64,000 nt of DNA from Candidatus Berkelbacteria bacterium. GTDB taxonomy: Bacteria > Patescibacteriota > UBA1384 > JACPKC01. A program made the translations under genes and the position numbers. A model generated the notes under the pieces. The model was given only the letters and a program-made list of their open reading frames with translations, had not been told where the DNA came from and did not search any database. Where the stretch lies: NCBI GenBank assembly GCA_016187225.1, contig JACPKC010000006.1, forward strand, positions 25,051-89,050. The letters are read 5' to 3'. Shown here one piece after another: positions 11,319 to 64,000 of this stretch (position 1 is its first letter; every line of letters starts with the position of its first letter).

Positions 11319-11328
11319 AGCCGAATGT

Positions 11329-14186: not shown

Positions 14187-14188
14187 CA

Positions 14189-17732: not shown

Positions 17733-18166
17733 TTGCGTACCTCGATTTTTACGCATCTTTTGCCCTGACGGCTGAAAGAAAAATACAAGAGATAGTGTGC
17801 CTGTTCAATAATTTCAGGCAGATTGTCAATCCATTCAACGAGTGTCGCTCCTTCAGGATTTTCGAGGGTTAAGCCAAGCGCTTCGAAATCTTGTTTGCGA
17901 GTCAAGCGATAAAGATCAAGATGGTGAAGACGTTTAATACCTCTCACTGCTTGTGGCAACTTATAAATTTGCTCATAAACAAAGGTTGGCGAGATAACTT
18001 CGGCTTGTAGACCTAAATCGAGCAGTAAATGACGGACAAAGGTTGTTTTACCAGTACCTAAAAAACCAACCAAGCCGACAATTAGACCGGGTTTTAAGTT
18101 TTTCGCGAGCTCGTGAGCGACTGCCGTCAGTTCATTCAAAGTCTGAATTGGGAAAACTCGTTTCAT
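17729..18166 (-). CDS. tsaE: tRNA threonylcarbamoyladenosine biosynthesis protein TsaE (YjeE)
   Basis: A P-loop GFLGTGKTTFVRHL in a roughly 145-aa protein. Confidence 0.8.
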   Translation of the reverse strand: MKRVFPIQTLNELTAVAHELAKNLKPGLIVGLVGFLGTGKTTFVRHLLLDLGLQAEVISPTFVYEQIYKLPQAVRGIKRLHHLDLYRLTRKQDFEALGLTLENPEGATLVEWIDNLPEIIEQAHYLLYFSFSRQGKRCVKIEVRK

Positions 18167-49175: not shown

Positions 49176-49259
49176 TGGTGCCGAGGGTGGGATTCGAACC
49201 CACAAGCCTTGCGGCGCAGGATTTTAAGTCCTGTGCGTATACCGTTCCGCCACCCCGGC
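49176..49259 (-). tRNA. tRNA-Leu (anticodon TAA), type II with long variable arm, CCA encoded
   Basis: Manual fold. The acceptor is GCCGGGG/CCUCGGC and the anticodon loop is CUUAAAA. There is a 13-nt variable arm, and the T-arm is GUGGG-UUCGAAU-CCCAC. Confidence 0.85.
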
Positions 49260-49289
49260 CAAGTTGGCCAAAGTTTAACAAAAAATTTC

Positions 49290-50306
49290 CTAGGCCGCCA
49301 CAGGAGTAGGTTGGCCAAGACGCAAAGGAAGAGTCAACAATGACGGCGCAACATGCACGATTTGCCAGCCCAAAGAAGAACGTAAAAACTTGCCCGAGAA
49401 CGAAAAGCCAGCCGCCTTGCGAATTCCACCACCACCAAACAAATTTGCGAGAGCGGCAACGTTAACGGCATCATCTTCGGTCCGCACCGAGGCTTTAATT
49501 CGGCCATTGGGCAGTTCGCACAAAAGAATCGTTGCCCGCGCTTCAGGCACGCAGTTAATCAGATTCACGCAACCGGCCAGGTCTTCGTGATAAGCATTGC
49601 AAGTCGCTAGATCTTCTTCAGTGATAATTGAAGTGACAATTTTAAGACTTGGATGATACTTAATTCGTGAGAGCGCCACCCCCCAAAGCCGCAAAGCCGG
49701 CACGGACTTAAAGCTCGCAACGTTCGCGTTGATTAGATCCAAACGCGCGCCGCGCGCCATGAGTTCTGCGGCCTGACTTAACACAATTGGCGAGGTATTA
49801 GAATGCTTGAACCCGCCGGTATCGTTGTAAAGCCCGGTGAGCAGACAAGTGGCGATGTCGGCATCCAAATTAATATCAAGCGCTTTAATTAGCGGAAAAA
49901 TCAATTCGGCGGCGGATGAAGCGTTGCTGTCGACGTAATTGAGCGAGGCTAATTTATGCAAGTCGTTGCGTTGGTGATGATCGATGTTGATGATTCTTTG
50001 ACGAAAACGGGTAAACTCGCGAATCCGATGCGCGAGGCCGGTGCGTTTAAGATCGCCGCAATCGATAATCACGATTCGATCGTAACTTCCAAGTAAGCAA
50101 TCGCGTTGAATGAGATTCACACCGGGCAAAAAACGAAAAGGATGCGGGATCTCATCCACACAAGTAAGGGTCACGTTTTTACCCAGACGTCGCAGAGTAT
50201 GACCAAGCGCTAGAAGACTGCCTGCGGCATCGCCATCGGCTTGCTCGTGGGTGATCAACAACAAGCGTTCAGCCGCACGAAGAGTGTTGGAAACTAGAGA
50301 GATCAT
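49290..50306 (-). CDS. DHH-family phosphoesterase (NrnA-like)
   Basis: DHH motifs (HEQADGDA..., IDHHQ) with a DHHA1-like C-terminus. Confidence 0.75.
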   Translation of the reverse strand: MISLVSNTLRAAERLLLITHEQADGDAAGSLLALGHTLRRLGKNVTLTCVDEIPHPFRFLPGVNLIQRDCLLGSYDRIVIIDCGDLKRTGLAHRIREFTRFRQRIINIDHHQRNDLHKLASLNYVDSNASSAAELIFPLIKALDINLDADIATCLLTGLYNDTGGFKHSNTSPIVLSQAAELMARGARLDLINANVASFKSVPALRLWGVALSRIKYHPSLKIVTSIITEEDLATCNAYHEDLAGCVNLINCVPEARATILLCELPNGRIKASVRTEDDAVNVAALANLFGGGGIRKAAGFSFSGKFLRSSLGWQIVHVAPSLLTLPLRLGQPTPVAA

Positions 50307-50387
50307 AGGATGGATTATGCAGTTATATTTTGCCAGCGCGTGGGACGGAGCGACGGAGCGATTATGAGGGTGTGGCTCACAATGAGT

Positions 50388-50866
50388 TTATGTATGTTTA
50401 AGAAGATAAATTTTGCGTTCACCCTCCGGCAAATCGCTTTTCGTCATCTTAATGTTTTCAACAGTTTCGGGCGTCTGCCCTCCGATGCGCGCGAAAGTTT
50501 CGCCTTTTTGCACGCCAACGAGAATAACAATGCGCGGCTCAATTTCGCCAATCAATTTAGCAATGGTCTGCAATTCGTCAGCTGATTCATTATCGGCGTG
50601 GACAAAGAGCAGGTCGACGTCTTCAAGACGAGCGAGTTCAGTTTCAGTGACCTGGCGTTTTTTCTGCCCCGCAACCGCGATTACCAAGGTTTCGATATGC
50701 AAATGGGCGAGATCGGGTGTAACCTCTGCAAAAACACCGGCTTTTTCATATTCACCCGGGCCATCGAGTACCAAATCGTTGATTTTGAGTTGGCCATCGA
50801 GTTCGATCGTGGCGGTTTTCGTTTTGAGGCGGCATTTTGAATCACCAGTGACACTGATCTGCATAG
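50388..50866 (-). CDS. Hypothetical protein (about 158 aa)
   Basis: The start was chosen at the ATG with RBS AAAGGA (MQISVTGDSK...). Weak resemblance to small metal-dependent hydrolase-like proteins, not confirmed. Confidence 0.35.
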
Positions 50867-50935
50867 CTATCCTTTCATGGAATATTTCAAAATATCGCAT
50901 TGTTGGCGCAAGGTAAAGAGTTAGGTGGTGAAAAT

Positions 50936-50978
50936 AAAAAGGCCCGGGCATTCAAACGATGCTCACGGGCCTTTTTTC
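50936..50978. terminator. Bidirectional rho-independent terminator at the core/high-GC-island junction
   Basis: The sequence aaaaaggcccgg...ccgggccttttttc has a GC stem with A-runs and T-runs on both sides. Confidence 0.65.
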
Positions 50979-51330
50979 ACCGACGCGGTTGAACGAGGTC
51001 GAAGACCCCGTTGCCGGGGTCCTCGGCGCCTCCCCACTCTTCATCGGGCGGCCATTCACGGCCGACCCAACGAAGAATTGGAGGCGCAAAGATTAGAATC
51101 ATAAGCAGTAAAAAACTGCTTATGATCTGTTCCAGCGTCAATCGCGTCACCTCCTTCGCTGGGTTCGATTTTGATCTTCGAAAAGATCAAGCCCAGCGAG
51201 CAGGTTCCCTCTAACCCACTCCGGATTCAGGAGAGGGCGGTACTTCTAATCAAAGAAACACTGCCCCAATCCGGAGTGGATGAGAGGGGAGGAGCTTGGG
51301 AGCTCCTCATTGACTTGCATTGGTCTATCT

Positions 51331-51454
51331 ACAATAATAGATACACCAATGCAGACACCCCGACCACCAGCAATATAATTGCGATAGCCAGGGCAAAGAT
51401 GAGAGTGCGAAATGACAATTGCTCGTCATACTCGACCCTCTTTTTCTTTTCCAT
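51331..51454 (-). CDS. 41-aa hydrophobic micropeptide (MEKKKRVEYDEQLSFRTLIFALAIAIILLVVGVSALVYLLL)
   Basis: Preceded by the conserved repeated leader ...ATCGCGAGAGGAGGTGAAAA-ATG with a perfect SD. The gene is below the track cutoff. Confidence 0.4.
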
Positions 51455-51607
51455 TTTTCACCTCCTCTCGCGATGATTAATTACGCGACGGGATTTCCTC
51501 GGGAGTGGCATCAGACTCTCCCGAGGTGAAGGAGTCGCATTAATAACCGTGAGAGAAGCCCGACCCCGTTCGACTCGCTCTGCGAGTTCGCTCGGGGTCG
51601 GAAAAAA

Positions 51608-52240
51608 TCACCATGGCCAGTATTTCGCCCGCTTCTGACTCTTCATCAGAAGCGGGCGACTGGGCGCCCAACCACACTCCTTACTGCCCATGGGGCATAG
51701 GGTGTAGTGGGCACCCGAGCCGCAGGCGCACTCGGCCGCCTGGGCCAGAGCCTCGAGAACTTCAGGTCGGTTTCTGAAGTTCCCGAGAACTTCAGGTCGG
51801 TCGAGTTGGCGAACCTCGACGGGTCCGCTGATCGCCTCGAAAAAAAATTCGAGGTAGACCGATTCCCGCTGGCTAAGCGGGTCAGTCACCCCCTCGTACT
51901 GAAGGGTCCAACCGGCCACGCCTTGCAAGGCAACGAGCCTCGCGCCGGAGGTCGAGGAGGTCCAGGCGAAGGACGTGACGTCCTCCTCCAGATACCCCCT
52001 CCAACCAGAGTGCTCCCCAGGCACTCGATGGGCGACGGGAGCGGTCGGAGGCATTACCTCCCGCCCGCCCAAAGAATTTTCCGCCATATAGACGAGCCCC
52101 TCGCGGGGTGCCGCCTCGGGTTCGCAGTCCTCCCCCCGTGGCATTTGGTTGGTTAGCCCGAAGGCCAACGAAACCAAATTTTCCCACGAGGTTTCCCCCG
52201 CGAAAATGTTTTGCTGGGTGGCGCTGGTGAGGGTCGTCAT
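51608..52240 (-). CDS. Hypothetical protein (210 aa) with an internal 19-bp tandem duplication
   Basis: An RBS GGGAGGG sits upstream of the ATG. The duplication ccgagaacttcaggtcggt x2 (51758-51810) encodes RPEVLGNFRNRPEVLE. Confidence 0.5.
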   Translation of the reverse strand: MTTLTSATQQNIFAGETSWENLVSLAFGLTNQMPRGEDCEPEAAPREGLVYMAENSLGGREVMPPTAPVAHRVPGEHSGWRGYLEEDVTSFAWTSSTSGARLVALQGVAGWTLQYEGVTDPLSQRESVYLEFFFEAISGPVEVRQLDRPEVLGNFRNRPEVLEALAQAAECACGSGAHYTLCPMGSKECGWAPSRPLLMKSQKRAKYWPW

Positions 52241-52482
52241 GTTGACGCCCTCCCTTCTTGCCCATTTTTCGATGGGCGGATCGTGGGTTTTTAACGTGTT
52301 TTACCACACGGATGACAAAGCTAACTCATCCCCATTGGGCATTAGTTAGCAGGGCATCACCCTGCTGCTATTTTAGGACCCGAGCACAGAGTCCTCGCTC
52401 TTCACTTCGATCCTCGTCGGATTGACGAAAAGCGAAGAAAGAGCCCTGCCTCACCGGTCGAAACCGACGAAGCAGGATGGGA

Positions 52483-52860
52483 TCAGTCGTCGGGCTGGCG
52501 ACGCGCGTCTGCCCCGAGTTCATCGAACTCGAGAACTAGACGTCTGACCCGTCGGAAACGAACAAACCGGTAGTACCGGCCGTTCACCTCCCAATCCGAT
52601 TCCTCCGGGTGCGCCACGATCTCGGCTTCCGACCAGAGTGGTCGAAGTCCCAGATCGACCATTCGGGCGAGAACAGAGAGCGGGACGACGGTAATCACAT
52701 CGTCATATCCACCCTCGCGGACTCGTCGCACGATCGTCTCGGCATTGTCGAACGGGCGCGAATCGCGCTCAACCCTCACATCCGCCCCAAACAACCGGCG
52801 CAAAGCGCCGAGCTGGACGGGATTCATCCCGTGCCGGCTGATCCAAAGGATTCGTTTCAT
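52483..52860 (-). CDS. Hypothetical protein (about 125 aa; start MKRILWISRHG...)
   Basis: An RBS GGAAAGGAGGGGG sits upstream of the internal ATG at 52860. The longer track ORF extends upstream without an RBS. Confidence 0.45.
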   Translation of the reverse strand: MKRILWISRHGMNPVQLGALRRLFGADVRVERDSRPFDNAETIVRRVREGGYDDVITVVPLSVLARMVDLGLRPLWSEAEIVAHPEESDWEVNGRYYRFVRFRRVRRLVLEFDELGADARRQPDD

Positions 52861-52877
52861 CGAATCCCCCTCCTTTC

Positions 52878-53066
52878 CTAGTTGATCCCGACGGTCTGCC
52901 CCGAGTATTGCGCGGCGATATACTGCGCATCCTCGAAATCGACCGGCTCGGACAAAATTTGGAACTCGCCCGGGTTTCGCGGGTCGGCAAACTCGGTCCA
53001 CAGCACCAGATAATTCCGGTCCGTGGTCGGCTGTCCTGACTCCAGCTCAACGATATGGATGGCCAT
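52878..53066 (-). CDS. Hypothetical 62-aa acidic protein
   Basis: It is preceded by the conserved repeated leader ...ATCGCGAGAGGAGGTGATCAC-ATG. Confidence 0.45.
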   Translation of the reverse strand: MAIHIVELESGQPTTDRNYLVLWTEFADPRNPGEFQILSEPVDFEDAQYIAAQYSGQTVGIN

Positions 53067-53195
53067 GTGATCACCTCCTCTCGCGATAATTGATTACGCA
53101 ACAACCCTTAAGTCGCGCGCTGATCGATAACCGTGAGAGAAGCCCGACCCCACAATCCACCGAAGCGAACGTGGGGTCGGGAAAAACAACTACTC
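53063..53195 (-). promoter_or_regulatory. Repeated intergenic module: terminator-like hairpin (cccgacccc...ggggtcggg), a conserved cttctctcacggttat box, and the leader gcgtaatNaatNatcgcgagaggaggtg-ATG. A second copy lies at 51455..51612.
   Basis: Two copies have the same order of conserved blocks and a variable spacer. Each directly precedes a minus-strand small gene. Confidence 0.6.
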
Positions 53196-53429
53196 GTCGA
53201 CCGGAAAGACGAAATACTGGAATACGCTGAAACTAGTTGCCGCGGCAACCGTTCGCGCATCCTCCAATGCTTCATCCACCGTATCGTGCGTGCGAGTCAG
53301 AAAACAAACGTGCCCGTCGTAGCGATAAAGTTTTGCGCCCAACCGCTCGTACTGAACAACATCGTCAACTGGCTCGCAGTAGTTGTTCTCGACAAAGCCA
53401 CCGCGGTATTTCATTTTTTTCTCCTCCAT
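53190..53429 (-). CDS. Hypothetical 79-aa protein
   Basis: An RBS GGAGGAGAAAAAAATG. It lies downstream of the 53564..54151 gene in the same orientation. Confidence 0.4.
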   Translation of the reverse strand: MEEKKMKYRGGFVENNYCEPVDDVVQYERLGAKLYRYDGHVCFLTRTHDTVDEALEDARTVAAATSFSVFQYFVFPVDE

Positions 53430-53563
53430 TCTTTTGATGGGGCAGTCGCTATCAGCGAGATGTCCATCAAAGTTCAGAGGCGCGGTGGCTTAAAAAACTG
53501 TTGGCCAGCCTTCCGAGCGGCTGGCAAAAAAAGTGAACCTCGCTCGGACGAGGGAGATGAGGG

Positions 53564-54151
53564 CTAGATTTGCGGCATGCGCCGCTCATCTAGCCACTCC
53601 CACTCGCTGGGGAGTGAGTCCCTCTCGGGGTAGGGGGTGGTATCGTCCCACCCCTGATTCTGCCACGCCGCCGTGTCGGCCCGCCGCTTGACGCGGCCGG
53701 TCATGAGGGCCTCGTCCTCCGGGGCCGAACCGGAGGATATCAGTCCCCCCTGGTAACCCCGCCACATCTGGTGGCGGAGATACTTGTCCCCCGCCAGGAT
53801 GGGTCCAAGCGAGGAATAGCACCAGGGATGCCGCGAGAGATACTCTCGCAGGAACCCCTCGAGTCCGACCTCGAACTCCAGGCGCCGAAGCGCCCGGCTC
53901 GCCGTCGCCCGCAGTTCGTGCGGGAGGGACTCCTCCTCCCCCACAAAGGGGAAGTAGGGTCCGTGTGCCGTATCTGGCACCTCCCCCAGGGCCCCAGACA
54001 ATTTGTAGTACGGGACCTGGTTGACCCGCACTCCCAGGATGGCCGGCGAGGCGATCCATCCTTGGTGCTTTCCGTCCACCTGGACGGAGTAGAGCCCGGC
54101 GACCTCGCCGGACTCTACCAGGGTCAGGGTGCTGTTCTGGGTGCTCTGCAT
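53564..54151 (-). CDS. Hypothetical 195-aa protein (MQSTQNSTLTLVESGE...) sharing a 5' module with the gene at 58185..58625
   Basis: The start is at the ATG inside the conserved roughly 135-bp promoter/leader repeat (RBS GGAGGTG). The first roughly 10 codons are homologous to the paralogous cassette. Confidence 0.5.
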   Translation of the reverse strand: MQSTQNSTLTLVESGEVAGLYSVQVDGKHQGWIASPAILGVRVNQVPYYKLSGALGEVPDTAHGPYFPFVGEEESLPHELRATASRALRRLEFEVGLEGFLREYLSRHPWCYSSLGPILAGDKYLRHQMWRGYQGGLISSGSAPEDEALMTGRVKRRADTAAWQNQGWDDTTPYPERDSLPSEWEWLDERRMPQI

Positions 54152-54266
54152 GGCAGGCACACCTCCATTCTTAAACTCCCGCTTGCGCGGGGCGATGGAA
54201 GGACTATAAATAGTCAGCCCGTCGCCCAACATAAACGAGTTATTTCCGCTCATCCTCGATTCCTCA
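54130..54266 (-). promoter_or_regulatory. Repeated promoter/leader module, about 135 bp, copy 1; copy 2 lies at 58614..58749
   Basis: The two copies are near-identical, for example gtgctctgcatggcaggcac...cccgcttgcgcggggcgatggaaggactataaatagtcagccc...cataaacgag...catcctcgattcctcatcggtttcga. The module contains a GCAA-tetraloop hairpin cccgc-gcaa-gcggg in the leader and the start codon of the downstream gene. Confidence 0.7.
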
Positions 54267-54408
54267 TCGGTTTCGATGAAAGTCCGAGGTAACTCAAAAA
54301 AAACTTTTGGCCAGCCGCGATGCGGCGGTGAAGCTTGATTAGCATCAAACCTCGCCGCCACAACCCGAGTTTGCAGAATCCCTGTTAATTTCCTATACTT
54401 GAGTTATT

Positions 54409-54648
54409 ATGCCTAATGTCTTCATTCCCAAAGAATATGAACGGACTCGCGAGCTCGTCGCCATCCCTAAAAAGAAGTATGAGGCTTATCTTGAGGCGCA
54501 ACGCGCTCAAGCACGACCAGCCAAACATGCCCAATCCAAACGAGATCAAGAGCTGACGGAGGTACTGGAAATTATCCGCAGAGGTAAAGCCGACTACCGC
54601 GCCGGTAGAATTCGGACTGTCCAATCGCTTTCGGAACTCATGGAGTAA
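54409..54648 (+). CDS. Type II antitoxin (RelB/ParD/Phd-like)
   Basis: A 79-aa protein immediately upstream of a RelE/ParE-like toxin gene, with a 5-nt gap. A sigma70-like promoter TTGCAG-17-TATACT lies upstream. Confidence 0.6.
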   Translation: MPNVFIPKEYERTRELVAIPKKKYEAYLEAQRAQARPAKHAQSKRDQELTEVLEIIRRGKADYRAGRIRTVQSLSELME

Positions 54649-54653
54649 ATCCA

Positions 54654-54926
54654 GTGCGTCGACCGATCGCAACTATCGATGTGACGCCAGATTTTGAAAA
54701 GGCTTTTCGTCGCCTGCCAGTTCGTATCCAGCGTTTGGCCACCAAGAAAACAAGTTGGTTTCGCGATAATGCACACGATTCCAGGCTAAAAACTCATAAG
54801 TTGAGCGGCCAACTCAACGAACACTGGTCGTTTTCCGTAAATCGCGAGTACCGGATTCTATTTGAGTTCACGAGTAATACCACCGCACTCTTCCACTCAA
54901 TTGGCACCCACGCCATCTATCGTTGA
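54654..54926 (+). CDS. Type II toxin, RelE/ParE superfamily
   Basis: A 90-aa protein with the motif HKLSGQLNEHWSFSVNREYRILFEF, characteristic of RelE/ParE-fold toxins. Confidence 0.65.
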   Translation: MRRPIATIDVTPDFEKAFRRLPVRIQRLATKKTSWFRDNAHDSRLKTHKLSGQLNEHWSFSVNREYRILFEFTSNTTALFHSIGTHAIYR

Positions 54927-55294
54927 AGTGCGTCTGCAACCCGTAAGACCGATCCGGATCAATCCCCAGGCGCCAAAACTCGATGTGAGTGGAGAGATGC
55001 TTCCATCGCTGGTCACAACTATTCGTTGCGTCAAGTAAAAAGATCCCTTCCTCCGATTTTAGGGGAAGAGAAGAAGCGGGGCGGGAGGCAAGCGTGCCTG
55101 CGACCGCCCCAAGCTTTGGCCGGGTTCCGATCGATTGATCGGAAGCGTTAAGACGGGAGCAATCCTTCGGGGTGTTCGCTCAACCGTCTTGCCGGCCTAC
55201 CCGCAAAAGTTGCGGGTAGGGTTGGATTCTCCGCCGTCGGCGGATTCTTACTCTCGCGCCACCAACCAAGGCGCGGGAGGGCAGTGTTTATGCT

Positions 55295-55510
55295 AGACCA
55301 GTCTCGCAAAGAGACAGTCGGCTTCATGCTCGACGTCCTCTCCCGAGTCTGATCTAGACTCATTTCCACAGCAGAGACACTGTCTGTACTCAAACAGTGT
55401 GCCTCCACTGGAGAAATTGTGCAGTTCGTTGTTTTTGATCCACTGCACAATTTCTCTTTTCAGCTCGGGATCACTTTCGATCGCCCGAGCAAGATTGGAG
55501 AAAAGCATTC
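55295..55510 (-). CDS. Small 71-aa Cys-containing protein (…YRQCLCCGNESR…)
   Basis: An RBS GGGAGGAGGGAGAAAGA-ATG. It contains a perfect 12-bp inverted repeat within the CDS. Confidence 0.35.
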
Positions 55511-56194
55511 TTTCTCCCTCCTCCCACCCTCGCGGGTAGGATGCCTGGTTGGCCGCGGGTGCGGGCCAGGGCGGGCAGATTCCCAATTCTTCCGTGATCG
55601 TGGGTTTCGACCACGCTCTGCCAGTCCGTGGAGGACTAGCATCCCGTTCTTTGAACGAGGAGCGTCCCCACGGAGCCTGGTGGCTCGGAAGAATTGGGTT
55701 TCCCCTTGTTCGTCCACTCACCAACTGCCAGCGGTGAGAGACAGGGCGGTTCGCCCCTCCAAGCGCGCGAAGACTAACTGGTCGAAGCGCGCGCTAGAGC
55801 CGAGTTTTGGTTACTTGCTTACTCGGGTGCAAGGTTGTCTTTATTCTCTGGGCGTTGCTGCCGGCAGACACATTTTTTTTTACGAGAGTGTCCACTCGTT
55901 CCAATTATTACTAATTGGATCGTTCCCTGCGCTGACCGGGCAAGGAGACCGGACTGATTTATGTTTTAGAAGCAACGCCAGTGAACGTTGCTCAACCGCG
56001 CGCGTGCCTTCATTAAAGAGGCCGCTTCTCACGGATAACTATGGTCACCCCTTAAAACCGCTCCGACAGTTTTAAGGGGATCTTTTACGCCACCCGACGT
56101 TGCCATTATGGTTTAGGCAACTCTCCCCGCCGACCTCAACGCTACAACGCGCTTAGGGCCAACGGTTGACGGGTGGGAGCCTGTCGTGGCACCC

Positions 56195-56602
56195 CTATGC
56201 GAGAAGGGGCAGAAGCACCTGCCGACGCTCCTGGTCAAATGTGTCCTTTAATAGACACCGTTTCGACCAGGCTTTAGATGGTTCAGCATTCAGGTACTGA
56301 ACCATCTGTCTGTACGCCATCTTGTCCGACGACGCACAGAACGCCCGTGCTCCCCCCTCGAGCTGACGGCCAACCTCCTCCTGGAGGTCCCAGATTGACG
56401 AAAGATTTTCCCATCCTTCGCCTCCAAGACTCTCGTCCAGGAAGAGCACGGCGTACTGGCGTTCAGCCAGCGCCTGCCGCGTCTCGGCCGCCGTCGTAGG
56501 AGCCACGACGTCCACGCCAACCGGCAGGACAGCAAGGAGCCGAGAGAGGAACATCTCTCGCCACTCCTCGCAGTCCTCGATCAGCAGGACGCTTTGGTTC
56601 AT
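56195..56602 (-). CDS. Standalone response-regulator receiver-like domain protein (degenerate)
   Basis: LLIEDCEE...VLFLDESL places acidic residues at CheY-like positions. The RBS is GGAGGTGAAAAG-ATG. A perfect 11-bp inverted repeat lies within the CDS. Confidence 0.45.
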   Translation of the reverse strand: MNQSVLLIEDCEEWREMFLSRLLAVLPVGVDVVAPTTAAETRQALAERQYAVLFLDESLGGEGWENLSSIWDLQEEVGRQLEGGARAFCASSDKMAYRQMVQYLNAEPSKAWSKRCLLKDTFDQERRQVLLPLLA

Positions 56603-56929
56603 CTTTTCACCTCCTTCGTTGGACTCAATTTTGATTTACCGATCAAATCCAACGAGGAAATGAATGCGCTCCTTAAGAACAAATCTGCTGCAAAAGTTCA
56701 ACCATGAATCAAACTCCAGTCACTATGGCTCTAATGACGTGCTCGCCCATCATCTTAACGACCTAACCCATTTCCGCACCGCGATCGCCCGCTGGCTGAC
56801 GAAACAAGTTGACTGATCAAGCCTTTCGAGACTTCGTTGACGATCTCCGATTCACGATTTTATAAGTTAATAAATCATGAACCCGAGTCGATCTCCCTCT
56901 ACCTGCTTGCACAGGCGAGGGAGAAAAAT

Positions 56930-57226
56930 CTACATCGCTGCCCGAACCCGGTCGGCAGCTAGTCGCTCTCTACGCCACCTCTCCTCGAGGTACTCGGCGT
57001 ACCAAGCGAGCAACTGCTCGGTGGTGCCGTCGAGAGCGGCGTTAACCGCCTCGAGCTGGGCGGCTTCTTTCTCCAGGTCGAGGCCGTCGAGCGGCTCAAG
57101 CTGGAGAAAGTACGCCGCTTCACGAATGGCGGCGTCCTTGGCGCGGCGCACCACGGCCGGAACCATGGCGTTCTTGGCCTCCGCCTCGGCGTACCGGCCC
57201 TCCCGGTTGTCGCGTTCGGTCGCCAT
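56930..57226 (-). CDS. Hypothetical 98-aa acidic/helical protein
   Basis: An RBS GGAAGGGAGG sits upstream of the ATG. Confidence 0.4.
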   Translation of the reverse strand: MATERDNREGRYAEAEAKNAMVPAVVRRAKDAAIREAAYFLQLEPLDGLDLEKEAAQLEAVNAALDGTTEQLLAWYAEYLEERWRRERLAADRVRAAM

Positions 57227-57301
57227 TTTGAGCGACCTCCCTTCCTTAATTGGTATTCAGGGAACCACCCTGCTGCTATTTTAGGACCCGAGCACAGAGT
57301 C

Positions 57302-57351
57302 CTCGCTCTTCACTTCGTCTTTCGATGAATCGAAAAGCGAAGAAAGAGCCC
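57302..57351. repeat. 50-bp repeat, left copy, flanking the vapBC cassette (ctcgctcttcacttcgtctttcgatgaatcgaaaagcgaagaaagagccc)
   Basis: It is identical 50/50 to the copy at 58098..58147. It forms an imperfect palindrome with bulges. A variant copy with a different 17-nt centre lies at 52398..52447. Copies 52358.. and 57266.. also share a 36-bp 5' extension. Confidence 0.8.
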
Positions 57352-57427
57352 GGCTCTCCGGTTGATTTGAAGATCATAGTTGGAATCAAGAGTGAAAGAT
57401 TGGTAAGATAATTGACGAAAGGAACTG

Positions 57428-57730
57428 ATGCCCAAAGTAATCAGTAAACCAAAAATCCGCGTTCCTGATGCGTACCAGGGTTATCAACGTTTGGTGGCGA
57501 TTTCGGAAACAGATTACCAGCGCCTGGTTGACAAGATGCGACCTGCCAAAACCGATCCGGCCGATCGCGCCACTGTCTGGAAAGCAGTGGAAGGCATCTG
57601 GGCTGACCGAGACGATCTTGATCCAATCCGTTATCAACGGCAATTACGGAACGAGTGGAATAAACGCGAAAAACGCCAGTATCGCTTGGGCGGGCGGGCA
57701 AAAAATTCGACGCACGCTAAGCGCTCATGA
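57428..57730 (+). CDS. vapB: VapB-like antitoxin
   Basis: A 100-aa protein that overlaps the downstream PIN toxin gene by 4 nt. Its GC is clearly lower than the surrounding island. Confidence 0.55.
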   Translation: MPKVISKPKIRVPDAYQGYQRLVAISETDYQRLVDKMRPAKTDPADRATVWKAVEGIWADRDDLDPIRYQRQLRNEWNKREKRQYRLGGRAKNSTHAKRS

Positions 57731-58092
57731 CGCTCGACACCAATATCATCATCACGCTTCTCAAAAACGAAGCGTCTTTGGTGAAATGGTTCCAGCAACT
57801 GCAGCGCGACCAGGTTATTTTCATATCCTCGATCACGCGAGCTGAACTTTTATCAGAATCAAAGTCAACCGCTAGGCAACTTGCTCGGATCGCACGATTT
57901 TTGAATTCCTTCCATTCTGTGCCACTAGATGACAAAATTGCCGATCATGTCGCAAGCTTGCGGCGCGCCTACTCTAAACTGCATGTTCCTGATGCCGCCG
58001 TGGCCGCCACTGCAATCATCATGGGCACGCCACTCGCCAGTCGCGACAAGGTATTTCGAAAGATTAAGGAACTCGATTTGATTGTGCCATAG
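57727..58092 (+). CDS. vapC: VapC PIN-domain toxin
   Basis: A PIN domain with a conserved acidic residue in MTLDTNIII near the N-terminus and conserved Asp/Glu further on, in a 121-aa protein. Confidence 0.7.
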   Translation: MTLDTNIIITLLKNEASLVKWFQQLQRDQVIFISSITRAELLSESKSTARQLARIARFLNSFHSVPLDDKIADHVASLRRAYSKLHVPDAAVAATAIIMGTPLASRDKVFRKIKELDLIVP

Positions 58093-58097
58093 GCTTT

Positions 58098-58147
58098 CTC
58101 GCTCTTCACTTCGTCTTTCGATGAATCGAAAAGCGAAGAAAGAGCCC
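58098..58147. repeat. 50-bp repeat, right copy, flanking the vapBC cassette
   Basis: See the left copy. It is an exact direct repeat. Confidence 0.8.
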
Positions 58148-58184
58148 CCCGCTCGAAATGTTTTGCGAGACGGGGGGACAACGT

Positions 58185-58625
58185 TTAGACAGGCGCCTCG
58201 AGCGGGCGCTGGACGAGGGCTTTGCGCACCTCGACCCCGACGACTTCGTAGCCGCCGAAGGCGAGGATGTCACGCCCTCGCTCATCCTGGCCGGTCACGA
58301 TCACCCGCCCGTCCTCGCCCCGCTTGAAGACCTGGCGCAGGACATGAATGCCCTGCTCGGCCAGCCCCTCGACGAGGGCGATCATGACCGGCTCGGGCCC
58401 GCCGGCCTCGACCGCCACCACCTCCCTCTCCTCGGTGGCCTCGATCATGTCGATGACCGCCTGGACGGCGGCCACCGGATCGGCGCCATAAGGCACGTCC
58501 TCGGTGACCACCTCGAGGTCGTCACCGAAGACGACCGCGAGGGCCGCTCGACGGTCCTCACTCAACGGGTGACGCATCACCCGCAGGATTACCGGGGTCA
58601 GGATGGTGTTTTCGGTGCTCTGCAT
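58185..58625 (-). CDS. Hypothetical 146-aa protein (MQSTENTILTPV...) carrying the shared 5' module
   Basis: It has the same promoter/leader/first codons as the gene at 53564..54151. Confidence 0.5.
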   Translation of the reverse strand: MQSTENTILTPVILRVMRHPLSEDRRAALAVVFGDDLEVVTEDVPYGADPVAAVQAVIDMIEATEEREVVAVEAGGPEPVMIALVEGLAEQGIHVLRQVFKRGEDGRVIVTGQDERGRDILAFGGYEVVGVEVRKALVQRPLEAPV

Positions 58626-58872
58626 GGCAGGCACCTCCTCTCATGAGCTCCCGCTTGCGCGGGGCGATGGAAGGACTATAAATAGTCAGCCCAGCGCCCA
58701 ACATAAACGAGTCAGTTCACACTCATCCTCGATTCCTCATCGGTTTCGACCCGTTCTAAACGAAGTCGAAGAATGAGAGCCCGAGGTGAGCCCCCGACCG
58801 CATTCAGCAATGGGTCAGGGTCAAGCAGTCCGGCGCAAGTAAGCTACCTGGCCGGACTGAAGTCATGAGGCG

Positions 58873-61800
58873 CTAGCGGCGGTTGAACCGCGCTTTGAGC
58901 GCCTCGATCTGGGCCTGGGCGGTGGCCGCGTCTTCGGCAGAAGGTTCTGCCGGCGCGGCTTCGCGCGCCTTAGCCCGTTTCTTGCTCTGCCCCGATCCAG
59001 CCGATTCGCTGGCGCGAACCTCCGGCTCGGGGACTTGCGGTTTGTCTTCCGGGAAGGGCGGCTCGAGCCGCACTAGCGTGAGACGGAAGGAGCCAGTGTT
59101 GACCAACTCCCTTACCTCGCTCACGTAGTACGACTTGCCCGCAACCGGCTCCGGTGAGCGGCGGTCGAGCACGAACTTGGCGTGCTTCGATCCGGCCTCC
59201 CACTGGAGTTCTCCGGTTTTGGGGTGTCGCCCCTGGCGGAACGAGAGCTTGAACCATGCACGCTGGGAGACCATCTCCTCAGCGCGCTGGTAATCAGCCT
59301 CGTACCGCTCCCGATTCCTGGCCGCCCACGCCTCGTCCGTAAGAATGACTCCCGTGAAGTCATTCCGAACGAGTGGGCAGGCGCAGTCCGTCGGGAACCA
59401 CTCGGCGGCAACAGTGCCATCGATGAAAATTTTCACCGTGGCCACCGCATCCCACCGTTTATGGGTCCCTTCCGGCCGCACCTCGGCCAGGACAGCTTCG
59501 TCGTACTGGGTCAGCCCACTGTTTGACTGGGCCCAGACCACCCGGTTGATCGGGTGGAGGTTGGTCTGGCGGCAAACCAAACGGGTTTGACCCGTCTGGT
59601 CGCCCCACTCGGTATGCTCTTCAACCATCGGGTGGGAGCAAACCGGGCAGGTACCAAGGAGCGTGCGCAGGCGATCGTTCGCCGATCGCTTCAGCTCCTC
59701 TTTCTGCCGCTTGGCGTCCTCGGCCTTCTTTTGGAGCTCGGCCGTTTTCACGGAGAGCTCCTCAAAGAGCGCGCACGTCGACACGAAGTCGTGGCGCTTA
59801 AAGGCTTCGGTCGCCTCAGTCGCAAGGCGCTCAACCTCCCTCTCCTCCTTATAGGAGAGCAAACCATCGCGCTCATAGGTCGCGATCGTTTCCTGCTCCT
59901 CCCGAATGAGGGCGAGGGCGGTCTCCGCCTCGGGGCGCTTGGTCTCGTTGGTCTGGTGGTGAGCCAGCGCCAACTCGACCCGCGCCCGGACAGTCGCGAG
60001 CAGGTCGAGCGCCTTCTTCGGCTCCGGGGTGCGGCTGTAATAGCCGTCGCTCGTCCGGAGCAAGGCGCGCGCCTGCTCGATCTTTGCCGAGAGTCCCTCC
60101 GACTCGTACCAGCTGTCTTTCCCCGCTTCACGCGAGGTCAGACCGTAAGCCTGGTACTCGTCGAGGTTCACCCCGGCAAGCAGTTGGGCGACCGCGTCGG
60201 CTTCAGCTTGCGCTTCGGCCACGTAGCGGTCGCGATTTCTGCGTTCGTCTTCCTCGGCATCGAGCTTGGCCTTGGCTTTGATGGCCTCGGCCTGGCTCGT
60301 CTGCGCCTCCTCGCAAGTGCGGTACCATTTCTGGTACCAGCTCGCGTAGTAGGCGCGGAACGCCGGGTAGGCGAACGCCCCGGTCACGGCGTCATAGATC
60401 TCGGGTTCGGCGACCGCGGGGAGCGGCTCCAAACCCTTGACCACGAGTGTCGTGTCGGGGTGGTTGGTCGTGAACGCCTGCCAGGCCAACTCCAGCCGTT
60501 GCGCCTCGATCTGCTCGCGCAGGGTCGAGACGTCGGTGCCAGAGATGGCGGTGTAGCCCTTGTCCTGCAGCTTGAGCGTGTAGCTCGCGCCGCTCGGAAT
60601 GAGATGCTCCACCACTGCCTGGTCGGCGTTCTGGATGGTCGCCACCGACACCTGGATGGTGACGGTCTGCTTCTTCTCGCTCGAGTAGTACGACGCGCTG
60701 TCGTACTTATACTCGACGTTGCAGACCTCGCCGCCGATCAGCACGGTGTCGGGCGCCTGCTCGCGGATGTACGTTGCTTCCTCACCGGAAACAAACGTCG
60801 CCCGCGCCAGGCCAAAGTCGATGCCCTCGATCGCCGGATCGTCCATCCGGTAGATCTCGCCGAGTCGCTCGGCATAGATCTTGGCCGCCTCACTTTGAGT
60901 GAGCGGCCCCCGAACGGCGCCCCCGGACTTGGCTTGAAGTTCGGTCAGCTCGGCATTGACTGCCTGGCCAACTTCCCCCAGCCAAACTCGGGCAAACTGG
61001 TCGGCCAAGGCTTTGGTCGCCTCGGCGTTTCTCTGGGCGGCCACCACCGTCGTTGCGACTTCGGTGCCGTTGAACACCAGCACCTCGTCACAGACGACCT
61101 CGCCTCGCTCCTCACTCCACCGATAGTTCCGGCAGAGATTGGAGGCGAGGTGAGGCGCCACCTCGGCCAGCCAAGTCGGGTCAACCGCCGAGGCATTTTT
61201 GATCAGGCGGAGCGTCATTGAACGCCCTCGCCGATCTGTAATGCCAAGGTCGAACGGTTGGCCGACCAGCCACTCGGGCAAACTCGAGCGCTTCATCAAG
61301 CAGCTCTCCTTTGCCAGCTCTCGTTCGCCGTTGCCGCCGTTCTGGTATCGACCACTATAGGAAGAGCTCTTCCTATACAAATGGTCAACCAACCCAGTCG
61401 AGCAGGCCTTGAGAGTGTCTTGCTGAGAGCCGAAGCTCCCAAACTCAACATCCCCGACCCCCCGCACGGCGTCAGCAAGCGTGGGAATCTGGGCGTAGGC
61501 ACGCTTGATGTTCATGCCCACAATCCCAGCTTCCCGCCAGTCAACCTGCTTGAGGCTCCGATCCGCCTCCCGCAGGGCCCGTTTGACCTGCTCTCTCCGG
61601 CTCTCGCGCTGTTTGCGCTTGAGGTTCTTGTTAAAAACCTCTTGCCGCGGCGCGGTGCCGAGCAGGTGCTCAATCGTGTTCTGGCCAATCAAGGCGACCA
61701 GAACCGCCAGTTGGGCAAGTAGATCGCTCTCAGTTTCCTTGACACCGAAAAACGATCGCCACTCGCCACTTCTGGCAACGATGTCGCCGGCGTCAAGGCA

Positions 61801-63108
61801 AGCCGCGATGACAATCACGTCATCCACGACTCCCCGTTGCGCCGCTTCTAGGATCATCCGGGCAGAGTGCACCTCGATCGGCAAGCGATTAATCGCATAG
61901 CCGACTTCGGTCACTTTCCCGGCCTGGTCGATGGCGCCGAGACCTTTGAGCGCCTTCTTCGCATCAGCAATGACCTGGCGGTCAAGCTGATGGAAGAACG
62001 GCAGCTCGGCTGCGTCGTACCCGGCAATGGCCAAACGGAGCACCGTCTGGTCAAGCCGGGTGCGCATGATCTCGGGCACCGGGTAGCCGGGCCGCTCGGC
62101 GCTGGGGCAGTGGTCGATGTAGACCCCTTCGCCCAAGCGGCCGGTTCGGCCTCGGCGCTGTTGGCCGCGAGCTTTGGCGATCGGCTTGAGGTACAAGCCT
62201 TCTACGCCACTGACCAGCTCGACGCGTCGTTCCATGCCGGAGTCGACAACGGCGAGCCGGCGCCCGGGACTCGGCACTAGCGTACGGCCGGTTTCCAAGG
62301 CGTTGGTTGAAACCACCACCTTGGGCCGGTCGTACCGCTTGTAGGCGCGGTCTTTTTCCTCGCGCTTGAGCTTCCCGTAAAACGGGATCAGCTCGGCATC
62401 GAGGCTTTGGAGCCGCGCAACAGTCGCCACGATCTCGGCCTCGCCCGGCTGGAAGCAGAGGACGTCAAAGCCCTCAGCGACCAACTTGGCAATGTCAGCC
62501 TCGATCGTGGCACCAGCCGGTCGGTCGACGATTGGGAACTGCCTCCCCGGCACCTTGAACACCGGCGCGTTCCCGCGCTTGCGCGCGAGCTCGTCCGAGG
62601 CCAAAGTAGCCGAGAGGACCACGATCTTTTTAAAGACCGAGTTCCCTTCCTGGAGGTGCTTCCACGCCCAGGCCTCCAGAGTGGATTGGTTCGTATTCCA
62701 CTCGTGGAGCTCGTCGATGATGAGGATGTCGAACCGGTTGTGACCGGCCAACTCCCTCACCAGCGCGAGACCGTCGGTGCAGAACAGAATTGACGTCTCC
62801 GCCGAATCCTGCCTGCCCTTGCCGGTCCGGTAGCCGACGGTCGTGCCAAACGGCACGCCCATGAGCTGGGCGACATACTCGCTCGTGCCGATGACCGTTT
62901 CGATCAACGGCTCGGTTACAAGTACGCTGTTACCCAGCTCATGGTACCACTGGGGCACCATTGTCGACTTGCCGGAGCCGGTTTCGGCCTCGACAATCAT
63001 GTAGGGCGCGGCGCATCCAATGATCGCGGCTTTGAAGGCCTCGATCGGGAGCGCATCACGCCCGTTGCTGGTCGGGGAGCTGTTATTCACCATGCCATTC
63101 TTGGTCAT
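58873..63108 (-). CDS. HrpA-like DEAH/RHA-family ATP-dependent helicase (1411 aa) with a long C-terminal extension containing a Cys4 zinc-finger-like motif
   Basis: Motif I ETGSGKST, motif II DELHE, motif III SAT and motif VI QRRGRTGR. An HA2-like region (ELPFFHQLD...LGAID) follows. The C-terminus is a coiled coil with CPVCSHP...C...CAC and an Ala/Glu/Lys-rich tail. Confidence 0.75.
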   Translation of the reverse strand: MTKNGMVNNSSPTSNGRDALPIEAFKAAIIGCAAPYMIVEAETGSGKSTMVPQWYHELGNSVLVTEPLIETVIGTSEYVAQLMGVPFGTTVGYRTGKGRQDSAETSILFCTDGLALVRELAGHNRFDILIIDELHEWNTNQSTLEAWAWKHLQEGNSVFKKIVVLSATLASDELARKRGNAPVFKVPGRQFPIVDRPAGATIEADIAKLVAEGFDVLCFQPGEAEIVATVARLQSLDAELIPFYGKLKREEKDRAYKRYDRPKVVVSTNALETGRTLVPSPGRRLAVVDSGMERRVELVSGVEGLYLKPIAKARGQQRRGRTGRLGEGVYIDHCPSAERPGYPVPEIMRTRLDQTVLRLAIAGYDAAELPFFHQLDRQVIADAKKALKGLGAIDQAGKVTEVGYAINRLPIEVHSARMILEAAQRGVVDDVIVIAACLDAGDIVARSGEWRSFFGVKETESDLLAQLAVLVALIGQNTIEHLLGTAPRQEVFNKNLKRKQRESRREQVKRALREADRSLKQVDWREAGIVGMNIKRAYAQIPTLADAVRGVGDVEFGSFGSQQDTLKACSTGLVDHLYRKSSSYSGRYQNGGNGERELAKESCLMKRSSLPEWLVGQPFDLGITDRRGRSMTLRLIKNASAVDPTWLAEVAPHLASNLCRNYRWSEERGEVVCDEVLVFNGTEVATTVVAAQRNAEATKALADQFARVWLGEVGQAVNAELTELQAKSGGAVRGPLTQSEAAKIYAERLGEIYRMDDPAIEGIDFGLARATFVSGEEATYIREQAPDTVLIGGEVCNVEYKYDSASYYSSEKKQTVTIQVSVATIQNADQAVVEHLIPSGASYTLKLQDKGYTAISGTDVSTLREQIEAQRLELAWQAFTTNHPDTTLVVKGLEPLPAVAEPEIYDAVTGAFAYPAFRAYYASWYQKWYRTCEEAQTSQAEAIKAKAKLDAEEDERRNRDRYVAEAQAEADAVAQLLAGVNLDEYQAYGLTSREAGKDSWYESEGLSAKIEQARALLRTSDGYYSRTPEPKKALDLLATVRARVELALAHHQTNETKRPEAETALALIREEQETIATYERDGLLSYKEEREVERLATEATEAFKRHDFVSTCALFEELSVKTAELQKKAEDAKRQKEELKRSANDRLRTLLGTCPVCSHPMVEEHTEWGDQTGQTRLVCRQTNLHPINRVVWAQSNSGLTQYDEAVLAEVRPEGTHKRWDAVATVKIFIDGTVAAEWFPTDCACPLVRNDFTGVILTDEAWAARNRERYEADYQRAEEMVSQRAWFKLSFRQGRHPKTGELQWEAGSKHAKFVLDRRSPEPVAGKSYYVSEVRELVNTGSFRLTLVRLEPPFPEDKPQVPEPEVRASESAGSGQSKKRAKAREAAPAEPSAEDAATAQAQIEALKARFNRR

Positions 63109-63147
63109 GGTAAATTTCCCTTTCGGGAAAGCCGTCTAGCCTTTCGG

Positions 63148-63879
63148 CTAGGCGGCCAACAGCTCCTCTCGGAGATCGGCCGCCGCCCAAGCGACTTGCG
63201 CTCGGGCGCGACCCTGCTCGAACGGCGACCTTGCAGCCAGCCGTTCGGCGAGGGCCGACTCAAGGGAGTCGGCGGCGTCATGCCACCGACTCACGCTCGA
63301 GTCCCGGGCGACCAGGAGCAGAAGCTCCGGTCGCCGGGAGGCGACCACGGTTTTGCGCCAGAGCCCCTGGCACACGGGGGCAGAAGCGGCCAACGCCTCA
63401 CGGCGAGCCGCTTCTGCCTTTTGTTGGCGCGCCCACTCGCCTTTGGGCAGGGCGCGGCAATTCTGCCGCTCCTGCTTGCGGGCGCGGCGAGCCTCCCGGG
63501 CGGCGCGGTCGCGGGCCACCTTGGCCAGCACCGCCGCCCGGGTCACCTGACCGCGGACAGGTTGGGCTTTCGCCCGTTCCTGCCGCCGGTTGGCCCGCCG
63601 GCGCGCCGTCCGCCACGACCGCCCCTCGCTGGGGACGGCATGGAAAGTTTTTCTGCCACAAAGTGGCTGCGGCACCCAGAGCTGGTCGCCCATCAGAGCG
63701 GCCAGCTCCCCGGCCGCGAGGCGAATGCCCCGCGACCGAAAAAACTTCTTCGCCCGGGTGCGAGAGACGAACTCTCGACGGCCCGGGCAGGTCATGACAC
63801 CATTTTCCCGGGTGATGCCAAACCCGGTGGCGAGCACGAAGCTCGCCAGGAAAACGAGAACCAGCCCAATAATGAGCAT
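63148..63879 (-). CDS. Hypothetical membrane-anchored Arg-rich protein (243 aa)
   Basis: An RBS GGAAGGAGGAAAACGAG-ATG. It has an N-terminal TM helix and a highly basic (R/A/E-rich) remainder. Confidence 0.45.
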   Translation of the reverse strand: MLIIGLVLVFLASFVLATGFGITRENGVMTCPGRREFVSRTRAKKFFRSRGIRLAAGELAALMGDQLWVPQPLCGRKTFHAVPSEGRSWRTARRRANRRQERAKAQPVRGQVTRAAVLAKVARDRAAREARRARKQERQNCRALPKGEWARQQKAEAARREALAASAPVCQGLWRKTVVASRRPELLLLVARDSSVSRWHDAADSLESALAERLAARSPFEQGRARAQVAWAAADLREELLAA

Positions 63880-64000
63880 CTCGTTTTCCTCCTTCCCCCG
63901 CTTTGCGGGTTTTTCAACCGCACGGGGGATTCACCGGCTGGCGAATGCCCACCCCGAACAGCGACGCCTTTCACGTCTCCCTCTGCGCCACATTTTTCCT

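Follow-up and report, generated by a model that had tools for sequence, protein, structure and literature searches.

How a block of GC-rich DNA came to lie beside housekeeping genes of lower guanine-plus-cytosine (GC) content is the question raised by a 64,000-nucleotide (nt) stretch of a Candidatus Berkelbacteria contig, referred to here as the window. The right-hand end of the window is occupied by an island of GC-rich genes that includes a giant HrpA-like helicase. Candidate Phyla Radiation (CPR, or Patescibacteria) bacteria have tiny, streamlined genomes and unusual ribosomes, and gene gain in these organisms is poorly understood. The original prediction, made from the letters of the window alone, took the block for a prophage-like, plasmid-like or defence-like island acquired from a high-GC donor, with an actinobacterial host as a plausible source. 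The analysis described here points elsewhere: on balance, the island probably passed from one CPR bacterium to another, with a CPR lineage or element of high GC content as the source, and received its toxin-antitoxin cassettes later.

A GC-rich block in a Berkelbacteria chromosome

The abrupt change in base composition that had been described at about 50.98 kilobases (kb), at a bidirectional terminator, is borne out. GC content is 0.476 over positions 1-50980 and 0.593 over positions 50981-64000. In 1-kb windows, the values range from 0.39 to 0.52 up to 51 kb, and from 0.52 to 0.67 thence to the end of the window, while in 300-nt windows the core has a mean of 0.476 (standard deviation 0.039, maximum 0.59) against an island mean of 0.593. 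The best single likelihood change-point lies at about 51,480, and the 0.5 kb between 50,980 and 51,480 has a GC content of about 0.50-0.55. This segment was assigned to the island because island-type ribosome-binding and leader repeats are present there. For instance, the leader at 51147-51175 is repeated at 56607-56635 (86% identity), and the leader at 51458-51489 is repeated at 53071-53102 (91% identity). GC content at third codon positions (GC3) is 0.58-0.87 in the minus-strand island genes (0.79 in the helicase), as compared to 0.45-0.58 in the adjacent core genes. The island also contains long antisense open reading frames (ORFs), such as the 555-amino-acid (aa) ORF at 59554-61221 on the plus strand opposite the helicase, as is expected of GC-rich coding DNA; both features had been noted in the original prediction. 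In a composition-corrected tetranucleotide comparison, a check that the original prediction had proposed, the island correlates with 13-kb core chunks at 0.70-0.81, whereas core chunks correlate with each other at 0.93-0.95. These measurements support a region that is compositionally foreign to the host chromosome.

At the left boundary, a two-way hairpin resembling an intrinsic terminator (Table 1) separates the last island gene from a core gene encoding a 158-aa protein. The fold has z-scores of -4.6 on the plus strand and -5.6 on the minus strand, with none of 200 shuffled sequences folding equally well, and was not picked up by a simple terminator scan. This strong terminator hairpin closes the island off from the housekeeping genes. 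Within the window, the island extends for at least 13 kb. Past the window, a third plus-strand gene (327 aa) lies in a stretch with a GC content of 0.41-0.50, and is followed by a GC-rich minus-strand GNAT acetyltransferase gene and a 120-aa gene in a stretch with a GC content of 0.51-0.63. The island therefore reaches at least 66.7 kb in extended window coordinates, or more than 15.7 kb in length if the GC-rich genes just past the window are counted, 15.7 kb being the extent of sequence available.

The abrupt step raises the possibility of a chimeric contig, against which the original prediction had argued, a view that the analysis supports. A Logan contig of 3,208 nt (L002; run SRR12113424) is 100% identical to window positions 49180-52387, so that the DHH-family gene of the core and the 210-aa gene of the island lie on one contig. 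A chimera is unlikely because this independently assembled contig crosses the junction at full identity. A second Logan contig, L001, corresponds to positions 58663-64000 and continues for 2,683 nt past the window. The contig ends at 52387 and 58663 fall in internal repeats of the island, which are expected break points for assemblers, whereas the compositional junction is no such place. The left side of the window is taken to be chromosome because it encodes the alpha and beta subunits of ATP synthase, SecA, class I LysRS, a PBP2-type transpeptidase, FtsA and AlaRS. No DNA is shared between island and core. In the NCBI annotation, the helicase (HYW32_01710) and a neighbouring 146-aa protein (HYW32_01705) belong to a Candidatus Berkelbacteria metagenome-assembled genome (MAG), on a contig of 161,004 nt. 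The GC-rich region is a genuine part of the Candidatus Berkelbacteria chromosome.

Embedded in the island are two toxin-antitoxin cassettes, described in the prediction as relBE-like and vapBC modules of core-like composition, and core-like they are. Both lie on the plus strand, that is, antisense to the island genes. In the first cassette, the toxin matches the Pfam family HigB-like_toxin (E 3.1e-6, 28.0 bits against a cut-off of 27), with weaker matches to ParE_like and YafQ, and the 79-aa gene stops 6 nt upstream of it, its antitoxin role being assigned by position only. The arrangement of a RelE/ParE-superfamily toxin fold with an adjacent small partner gene is that of the superfamily. In the second cassette, the toxin matches Pfam PIN (E 9.3e-18) and is overlapped by 4 nt by the 100-aa gene upstream, which is the VapBC arrangement of a PIN-domain toxin and a small overlapping partner. 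Like known VapBC and RelBE/HigBA/ParDE modules, the cassettes combine a PIN or RelE/HigB-superfamily toxin with an upstream small gene inside accessory DNA. They differ from these modules in their putative antitoxins, neither of which matches a known family, in their host-like GC content and antisense orientation, and, for vapBC, in a position between perfect duplicates. The latter are 50-nt direct repeats (57302-57351 and 58098-58147), and form part of an intergenic hairpin module. Other copies of the module are 88-91% alike, and the vapBC insertion thus looks younger than the module family.

The helicase and its relatives in CPR genomes

The helicase (Table 1) contains Pfam DEAD, Helicase_C and HA2 (HA2_N, HA2_C) domains, and an alignment of its family shows no variation in the Walker A, DExH, SAT and QRxGRxGR columns. 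Among solved structures, the best matches are chains of Escherichia coli HrpA, and a profile built from 20 family members aligns with E. coli HrpA (9ggr) over residues 75-899, and no further, with an E-value of 2.7e-124. The two proteins (PDB 9ggr, 9gft and 6zww for E. coli) have in common the RecA1/RecA2 core, the helicase motifs, the HA2 winged-helix and ratchet domains, and a long C-terminal region in a chain of comparable size (1411 aa in the island, 1300 aa in E. coli). However, identity is about 30%, and over the first ~450 residues only; the N-terminal 75 residues of HrpA are absent from the island helicase, and the last ~630 residues of the latter do not align to HrpA. The genes also differ in setting, the island helicase being accompanied by GNAT in a GC-rich island whereas the HrpA gene is a stand-alone housekeeping gene. 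The score of the island helicase against the NCBIfam HrpA model (TIGR01967) is 198.9 bits, well under the cut-off of 722.75, with only residues 10-447 aligning, and an orthologous relationship by the NCBI criterion was rejected on this basis. As judged from sequence, the protein belongs to the HrpA branch of the DEAH helicases. HrpA of E. coli, an ATP-driven RNA helicase, splits and rescues collided ribosomes (PMC11419001). By analogy, the most likely role of the island helicase is a comparable remodelling of RNA or of ribosome complexes; no paper linking CPR bacteria or Patescibacteria with HrpA-like helicases was found in the literature.

The named relatives of the helicase lie within the CPR. 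Among the best 120 relatives, all those with an organism name are from CPR bacteria (Magasanikbacteria, Kaiserbacteria, Nomurabacteria and 'Patescibacteria group'), and none are actinobacterial. The 146-aa protein tells the same story: its family comprises 59 cluster representatives, and the members with an organism name are from Patescibacteria only, including the Berkelbacteria MAG of the window. The proposed actinobacterial donor is therefore not supported. A member with 61% identity to the 146-aa protein is found among housekeeping genes of a CPR genome with a GC content of 0.55-0.60, where its composition is native, and possible high-GC CPR donor lineages thus exist. With the longer ORF call for the 146-aa gene (58185-58634), its GC3 is 0.87.

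Beyond these relatives, a genome-collection scan with the helicase as single query yielded one locus, in a Taylorbacteria MAG with an apparently truncated copy. A tblastn search of 50,697 phage records with the helicase found bacterial-type hrpA/hrpB genes on three records only, and no close relative. Distant relatives (31-36% identity) are present on IMG/VR contigs of 95-433 kb. On one of these (L009; 250 kb, 0.25 GC), a distant short-form relative and a divergent family-B DNA polymerase are separated by a few kb (2217-4085, minus strand, and 9977-11935, plus strand); jumbo-phage-like elements may therefore encode the helicase family. A Kaiserbacteria-type locus (L017, 10001-14818) has a 793-aa helicase followed by a separate 735-aa gene. 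The long-form helicase is not an obvious fusion of two such genes, because BLASTP shows no similarity between the 735-aa gene product and the C-terminal half of the helicase in the window.

Seven loci with the long form of the helicase were compared (the window, L004, L005, L008, L016, L102 and L103), the relatives being 43-62% identical. Six of the seven exceed their surroundings by +0.15 to +0.26 in GC content, the exception being L103. For instance, the GC contents of the helicase and of its surroundings (1-kb windows) are 0.61-0.67 and 0.35-0.41 in L004, 0.65-0.68 and 0.46-0.51 in L008, 0.52-0.54 and 0.28-0.38 in L005, and 0.57-0.62 and 0.32-0.41 in L016, a Magasanikbacteria MAG. In L102, the helicase has a GC content of 0.64 and a GC3 of 0.82, with neighbours reaching a GC3 of 0.98, whereas GC content is 0.36-0.40 in dnaA, dnaN and trmB next to it. 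In L103, the helicase-GNAT pair is at host-like GC (0.38, GC3 0.32). For distant short-form relatives, the difference from the surroundings is -0.02 to +0.10. The genes beside the helicase include one for a DUF3228 protein in L102 (5988-8183; GC3 0.98) and, in L016, one for a 280-aa protein (1683-2525; GC3 0.91) with DHH-like motifs recognised by eye; the host GC3 is about 0.3 in both. Locus L005 and two others, L006 and L007, encode an identical 1442-aa helicase and differ in one cassette, ~300-1,200 nt downstream, where L006 and L007 have a 173-aa AAA_28 gene and L005 a 97-aa gene on the other strand, which shows strain-level turnover of cassettes inside a related island.

The partner that recurs with the helicase is the GNAT acetyltransferase gene, which is directly adjacent in L016, L102 and L103, and lies within ~3 kb here, past the window edge and with two genes between. 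The GNAT proteins of these loci are 35-48% identical. The GNAT partner of the island helicase resembles ribosomal-protein acetyltransferases of the RimI type, but weakly (E 4e-4, well short of the cut-off), which would fit a translation-related module and can serve as a lead only. By BLASTP and phmmer, no small gene other than GNAT is common to the island and the other helicase loci, and no member of the 146-aa family was found at those loci with the family hidden Markov model (HMM). The neighbourhood elsewhere is a recurring one, with TrmB and a 23S_rRNA_IVP-family gene near the helicase in L005, L016, L102 and L103, and recA, an HTH_25 gene and FtsK also nearby in L005, L016 and L103.

No simple explanation covers a neighbourhood that is conserved in some lineages, a different site here, and compositions that range from native to extreme. 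A resident locus could have been replaced repeatedly by GC-rich versions out of the CPR pool, or a local process could be raising GC content. It is conceivable, though we hold it to be doubtful, that the helicase and GNAT genes are the core of an undescribed CPR-specific element that recurs in low-GC CPR chromosomes as a block of GC-rich DNA (exceeding the host by up to 0.26 GC), often in the TrmB/23S_rRNA_IVP/recA/FtsK neighbourhood. Such an element could move, or replace a resident allele, without a recognisable recombinase, or a local process could drive or preserve its high GC content. If so, the intergenic repeats and a 681-nt structured stretch of the island could be RNA substrates or regulators of the helicase.

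Origin of the island

Under the favoured reading of exchange within the CPR, the island, or at least its helicase-GNAT core, would have been taken up laterally from the CPR pool or would have replaced a resident locus. The source would be a lineage or element of about 0.62-0.65 GC, and not an actinobacterial host. This value is suggested by the GC contents of the helicase gene at first, second and third codon positions (0.65/0.45/0.79), given the known way in which GC at each codon position follows that of the genome. Two toxin-antitoxin cassettes of resident-like composition would then have been inserted on the opposite strand, with the vapBC insertion duplicating a 50-nt piece of the intergenic hairpin module. 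Type II toxin-antitoxin modules are stabilisers of mobile DNA, and the cassettes would probably stabilise the island or favour its retention. From these features we infer the direction of transfer, its mechanism and the order of events, like the biochemical role suggested above. Transfer is favoured because unrelated genes in whole blocks share the foreign composition, because the cassettes do not, and because relatives that keep the core gene order show no island gene beside the 158-aa gene. Thus, of the acquisition from a high-GC donor that had been proposed, the foreign composition stands and the actinobacterial source finds no support.

The comparison with relatives is based on seven loci with the gene order FtsA-AlaRS-SLT-DHH-158aa, in which GC content is flat and the 1.1-9.5 kb beside the 158-aa gene show no gene of the island; their DHH proteins are only 45-66% identical to that of the window, and the right flank of the island lies outside the window. 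Several observations speak against lateral exchange as described. An exact empty site is not demonstrable among these relatives, and the right boundary lies outside the window and was not reached in the sequence available. No integrase, relaxase or other mobility gene was found in these 15.7 kb by domain searches of the island proteins, nor were flanking repeats resembling att sites found when 49.0-51.7 kb was compared with the 2.9 kb at and beyond the right edge, and the nearest tRNA gene (Leu, 49176-49259) is 1.7 kb from the island edge. An origin is traceable for the helicase, GNAT and 146-aa genes only, the remaining genes being without homologues or not searched. In addition, the conserved neighbours of the helicase in other genomes look like vertical inheritance at a fixed site, and not like free mobility.

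The last of these points bears on an alternative that we regard as rather unlikely, in which the helicase-GNAT locus has long been inherited vertically as a chromosomal module of the CPR and its high GC content arose or was kept in place, for instance by GC-biased gene conversion at a hot spot of recombination or selection on RNA, and was not imported recently. Such a history would account for the recurrence of TrmB, the 23S_rRNA_IVP-family gene, recA, HTH_25, FtsK and GNAT around the helicase in L005, L016, L102 and L103, and for the weak GC excess seen even in distant short-form relatives. It is also consistent with the comparison of L005 and L103, where the RecA proteins are 75% and the helicases 51% identical, and where the helicase GC3 is 0.57 and 0.32, respectively, at a similar site. 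However, the island in the window adjoins different core genes, and relatives with that order of core genes show none of its genes next to the 158-aa gene. Moreover, unrelated neighbours share the extreme composition in L102 and L016, such that whole blocks differ, and the embedded toxin-antitoxin cassettes keep the GC content of the host, contrary to what a local mutational process would produce. In favour of a chimera, or of an origin in some high-GC organism outside the CPR such as an actinobacterial host, one could cite the abrupt GC step, the orphan status of most small genes, and the GC3 of 0.91-0.98 in neighbours at related islands, which is typical of very high-GC genomes. This explanation is nonetheless very improbable, as the independent assembly crosses the junction unbroken, island-type repeats reach the terminator, and all traceable island genes have CPR relatives only.

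It is improbable, too, that the region is a plasmid, an integrative element or the integrated remnant of a prophage in CPR bacteria, with the helicase serving the replication or RNA metabolism of the element itself. Same-direction small orphans, duplicated leaders and toxin-antitoxin cassettes do resemble the early regions of phages or the leading regions of plasmids, and the distant helicase relatives on IMG/VR contigs, one of them near the family-B DNA polymerase, point the same way. On the other hand, no PHROGs match (E <= 0.01) was found for ten proteins (nine from the minus strand of the island and the 327-aa protein beyond the window), and no capsid, terminase, integrase, relaxase or replication-initiator domain was found in the island proteins with Pfam and NCBIfam. 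The 72,556 plasmid records of PLSDB gave only generic hrpA/hrpB matches of 26-32% identity, mostly on very large, non-mobilizable records, and neither these nor the phage records contain a close relative. Closer relatives of the helicase lie among housekeeping genes on long chromosomal contigs. The prophage-like and plasmid-like labels of the original prediction thus find no support, and the same applies to the defence-like label. That the region is a defence or conflict island, with the helicase as the motor of an undescribed anti-phage system, is distinctly improbable. Mokosh and other helicase-based defence systems are comparable in having a large HrpA/COG1643-type helicase in a variable island with toxin-antitoxin genes, the Mokosh protein MkoA having been likened to a COG1643 helicase. 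However, the island helicase has no PADLOC match (E <= 0.01) and neither a PLD nuclease nor another effector domain was found. PADLOC gave no significant match for any of the same ten proteins, its sole match being of CARF type, to the 146-aa protein (E 0.0011, 16.9 bits, not significant). Furthermore, the accessory genes differ between loci, and the closest characterised relative, HrpA, is a housekeeping RNA and ribosome helicase.

Exchange within the CPR has a precedent in the genomic islands reported for Patescibacteria, for which transfer is mostly within the phylum (PMC12455944). Like those IslandViewer-type islands, the one described here has an atypical composition, lies in a streamlined chromosome, draws mainly on the Patescibacteria gene pool, and carries accessory and orphan genes. 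It differs in that its GC content is above that of the host, in that no recombinase, tRNA or repeat boundary was found, and in that several CPR lineages have GC-rich versions of its helicase-GNAT core, some of them in a conserved neighbourhood.

Gene array, neighbouring features and implications

The island is a same-direction array of GC-rich minus-strand genes, with a ribosome-binding site of the GGAGG type before nearly every gene, and its content is as had been described, with a long helicase, many small minus-strand genes, repeated leader modules and toxin-antitoxin pairs. Read from the right, the order is the 243-aa gene, the helicase, the 146-aa, 98-aa and 135-aa genes, the 681-nt ORF-free stretch, the 71-aa and 194-aa genes, the 74-, 62-, 125- and 210-aa genes, two small peptide genes and the terminator (Table 1). 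The 194-aa gene, which alone among the small island orphans was searched database-wide, matched only itself among 5.8 billion protein clusters. A receiver domain was considered for the 135-aa protein and was not established, the match to Pfam cREC_REC having an E-value of 0.1 and a single-sequence structure model a mean confidence score (pLDDT) of 52. A tRNA-Ser(aga) of 96 nt called by ARAGORN at 53708-53803 on the minus strand was treated as a probable false positive because it lies inside the 194-aa ORF and has no Rfam support.

Table 1. Positions of the left boundary, genes, repeated modules and structured stretches of the island
Feature	Position	Strand	Remarks
Two-way intrinsic-terminator-like hairpin at the left boundary	50937-50978	both	A-run on one side, T-run on the other
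54-aa hydrophobic peptide gene	50977-51141	-	ORF and ribosome-binding-site scan; GGAGGTGA ribosome-binding module, island-type
41-aa membrane-peptide gene	51329-51454	-	Called in Logan contig L002; ribosome-binding-site scan; GGAGGTGA-type leader
210-aa protein gene	51608-52240	-	GC 0.62, GC3 0.73; no family match
Structured intergenic module, copy 1	52335-52480	-	Four hairpins; fold z -7.4
125-aa paralogue of the 146-aa protein	52483-52860	-	Family HMM E 2.6e-6; pairwise BLASTP E 0.002
62-aa gene	52878-53066	-	Strong ribosome-binding site; GC3 0.77
74-aa gene	53190-53414	-	Strong ribosome-binding site
194-aa orphan	53564-54148	-	Start taken at the ATG after a GGAGGTG site common to the 146-aa gene
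Promoter/5'-leader module, copy 1	54116-54276	-	Ribosome-binding site and about the first 11 codons
RelE/HigB/ParE-superfamily cassette	54409-54926	+	79-aa putative antitoxin 54409-54648, then 90-aa toxin 54654-54926; GC 0.49-0.50
71-aa candidate gene, weak call	55293-55508	-	Ribosome-binding-site scan; no family match
ORF-free structured stretch, 681 nt	55515-56195	-	No convincing ORF; fold z -6.3 (20 shuffles)
135-aa protein	56195-56602	-	Alternating strand-helix pattern, receiver-like by eye
98-aa gene	56930-57226	-	GC 0.67, GC3 0.81; no family match
Structured intergenic module, copy 2	57249-57369	-	Left flank of vapBC cassette; repeats D3, D4; fold z -3.35
vapBC-type cassette	57428-58092	+	100-aa gene 57428-57730, then 121-aa PIN toxin 57727-58092; GC 0.49-0.52
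Structured intergenic module, copy 3, partial	58098-58165	-	Right flank of vapBC cassette; repeats D4, D5
146-aa protein (HYW32_01705)	58185-58625	-	Rossmann-like alpha/beta fold; GC 0.68, GC3 0.88 (start 58625)
Promoter/5'-leader module, copy 2	58590-58749	-	Logan contig L001 breaks inside, at 58663
HrpA-like DEAH/RHA helicase, 1411 aa (HYW32_01710)	58873-63108	-	GC 0.63, GC3 0.79; ~750-aa C-terminal extension
243-aa protein	63148-63879	-	N-terminal hydrophobic segment, Arg/Ala-rich rest; GC 0.70; no family match

Two kinds of repeated module are present in the array. The leader modules (~160 nt) precede the 194-aa and 146-aa genes, and contain direct repeats (D6, D1 and D9) of 89-100% identity. 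The structured intergenic module is present in three copies, one of them partial, and one hairpin has an inner stem whose sequence is not the same in copies 1 and 2 but which pairs in both predicted folds. The 681-nt stretch has no Rfam match at E <= 1 and, as modelled by folding, could be a non-coding RNA or a long leader, making it a candidate structured RNA. Searches of the whole island with Rfam, at gathering thresholds and at E <= 1, returned nothing except a chance microRNA match.

Several features of the core side are recorded here in their own right. A HAD-hydrolase gene (48422-49105, minus strand) beside the tRNA-Leu gene has a slightly raised GC content (0.55), and tblastn gave no match to it in the related loci L019-L025, where the gene order is otherwise preserved. 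A 734-aa protein with two stretches of lamin-tail (LTD) domain is encoded among core genes at 18163-20367 (minus strand). At the left end of the window, a 507-aa large serine recombinase gene (3179-4702, plus strand; Pfam Recombinase and Resolvase) overlaps or abuts a tRNA-Gly(ccc) gene (4569-4642, minus strand), and positions 1-2000 have a low GC content of 0.39-0.43; together, these may mark the edge of a second, low-GC integrated element. A cobalamin riboswitch match at 2074-2200 (minus strand) is borderline (31.9 bits against a gathering score of 31.5). The 0.8-kb cassette at 13.7 kb, which had been put forward as a second entry of GC-rich DNA, does not hold up as such: positions 13800-14500 are mildly raised to 0.55 GC, about two standard deviations above the core, and share no DNA with the island. 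This segment is without a convincing gene, with ORFs overlapping on both strands, and has no Rfam match.

What the locus means for the CPR can be stated at several levels. The striking GC-rich block in this CPR chromosome is real, and not an assembly artefact, and its traceable genes come from the CPR gene pool and not from the presumed host. For the annotation of CPR MAGs, a high GC content beside a low-GC core need not mean contamination or host DNA. The analysis also singles out an uncharacterised and widespread branch of HrpA-like helicases, which could relate to translation quality control, given the rescue of collided ribosomes by E. coli HrpA. The part that deserves follow-up is that several unrelated CPR genomes have the same helicase-GNAT core in a GC-rich block. 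Should a larger sample bear this recurrence out, it would represent either a new CPR-specific mobile or replaceable module, or an unusual local process acting on base composition.

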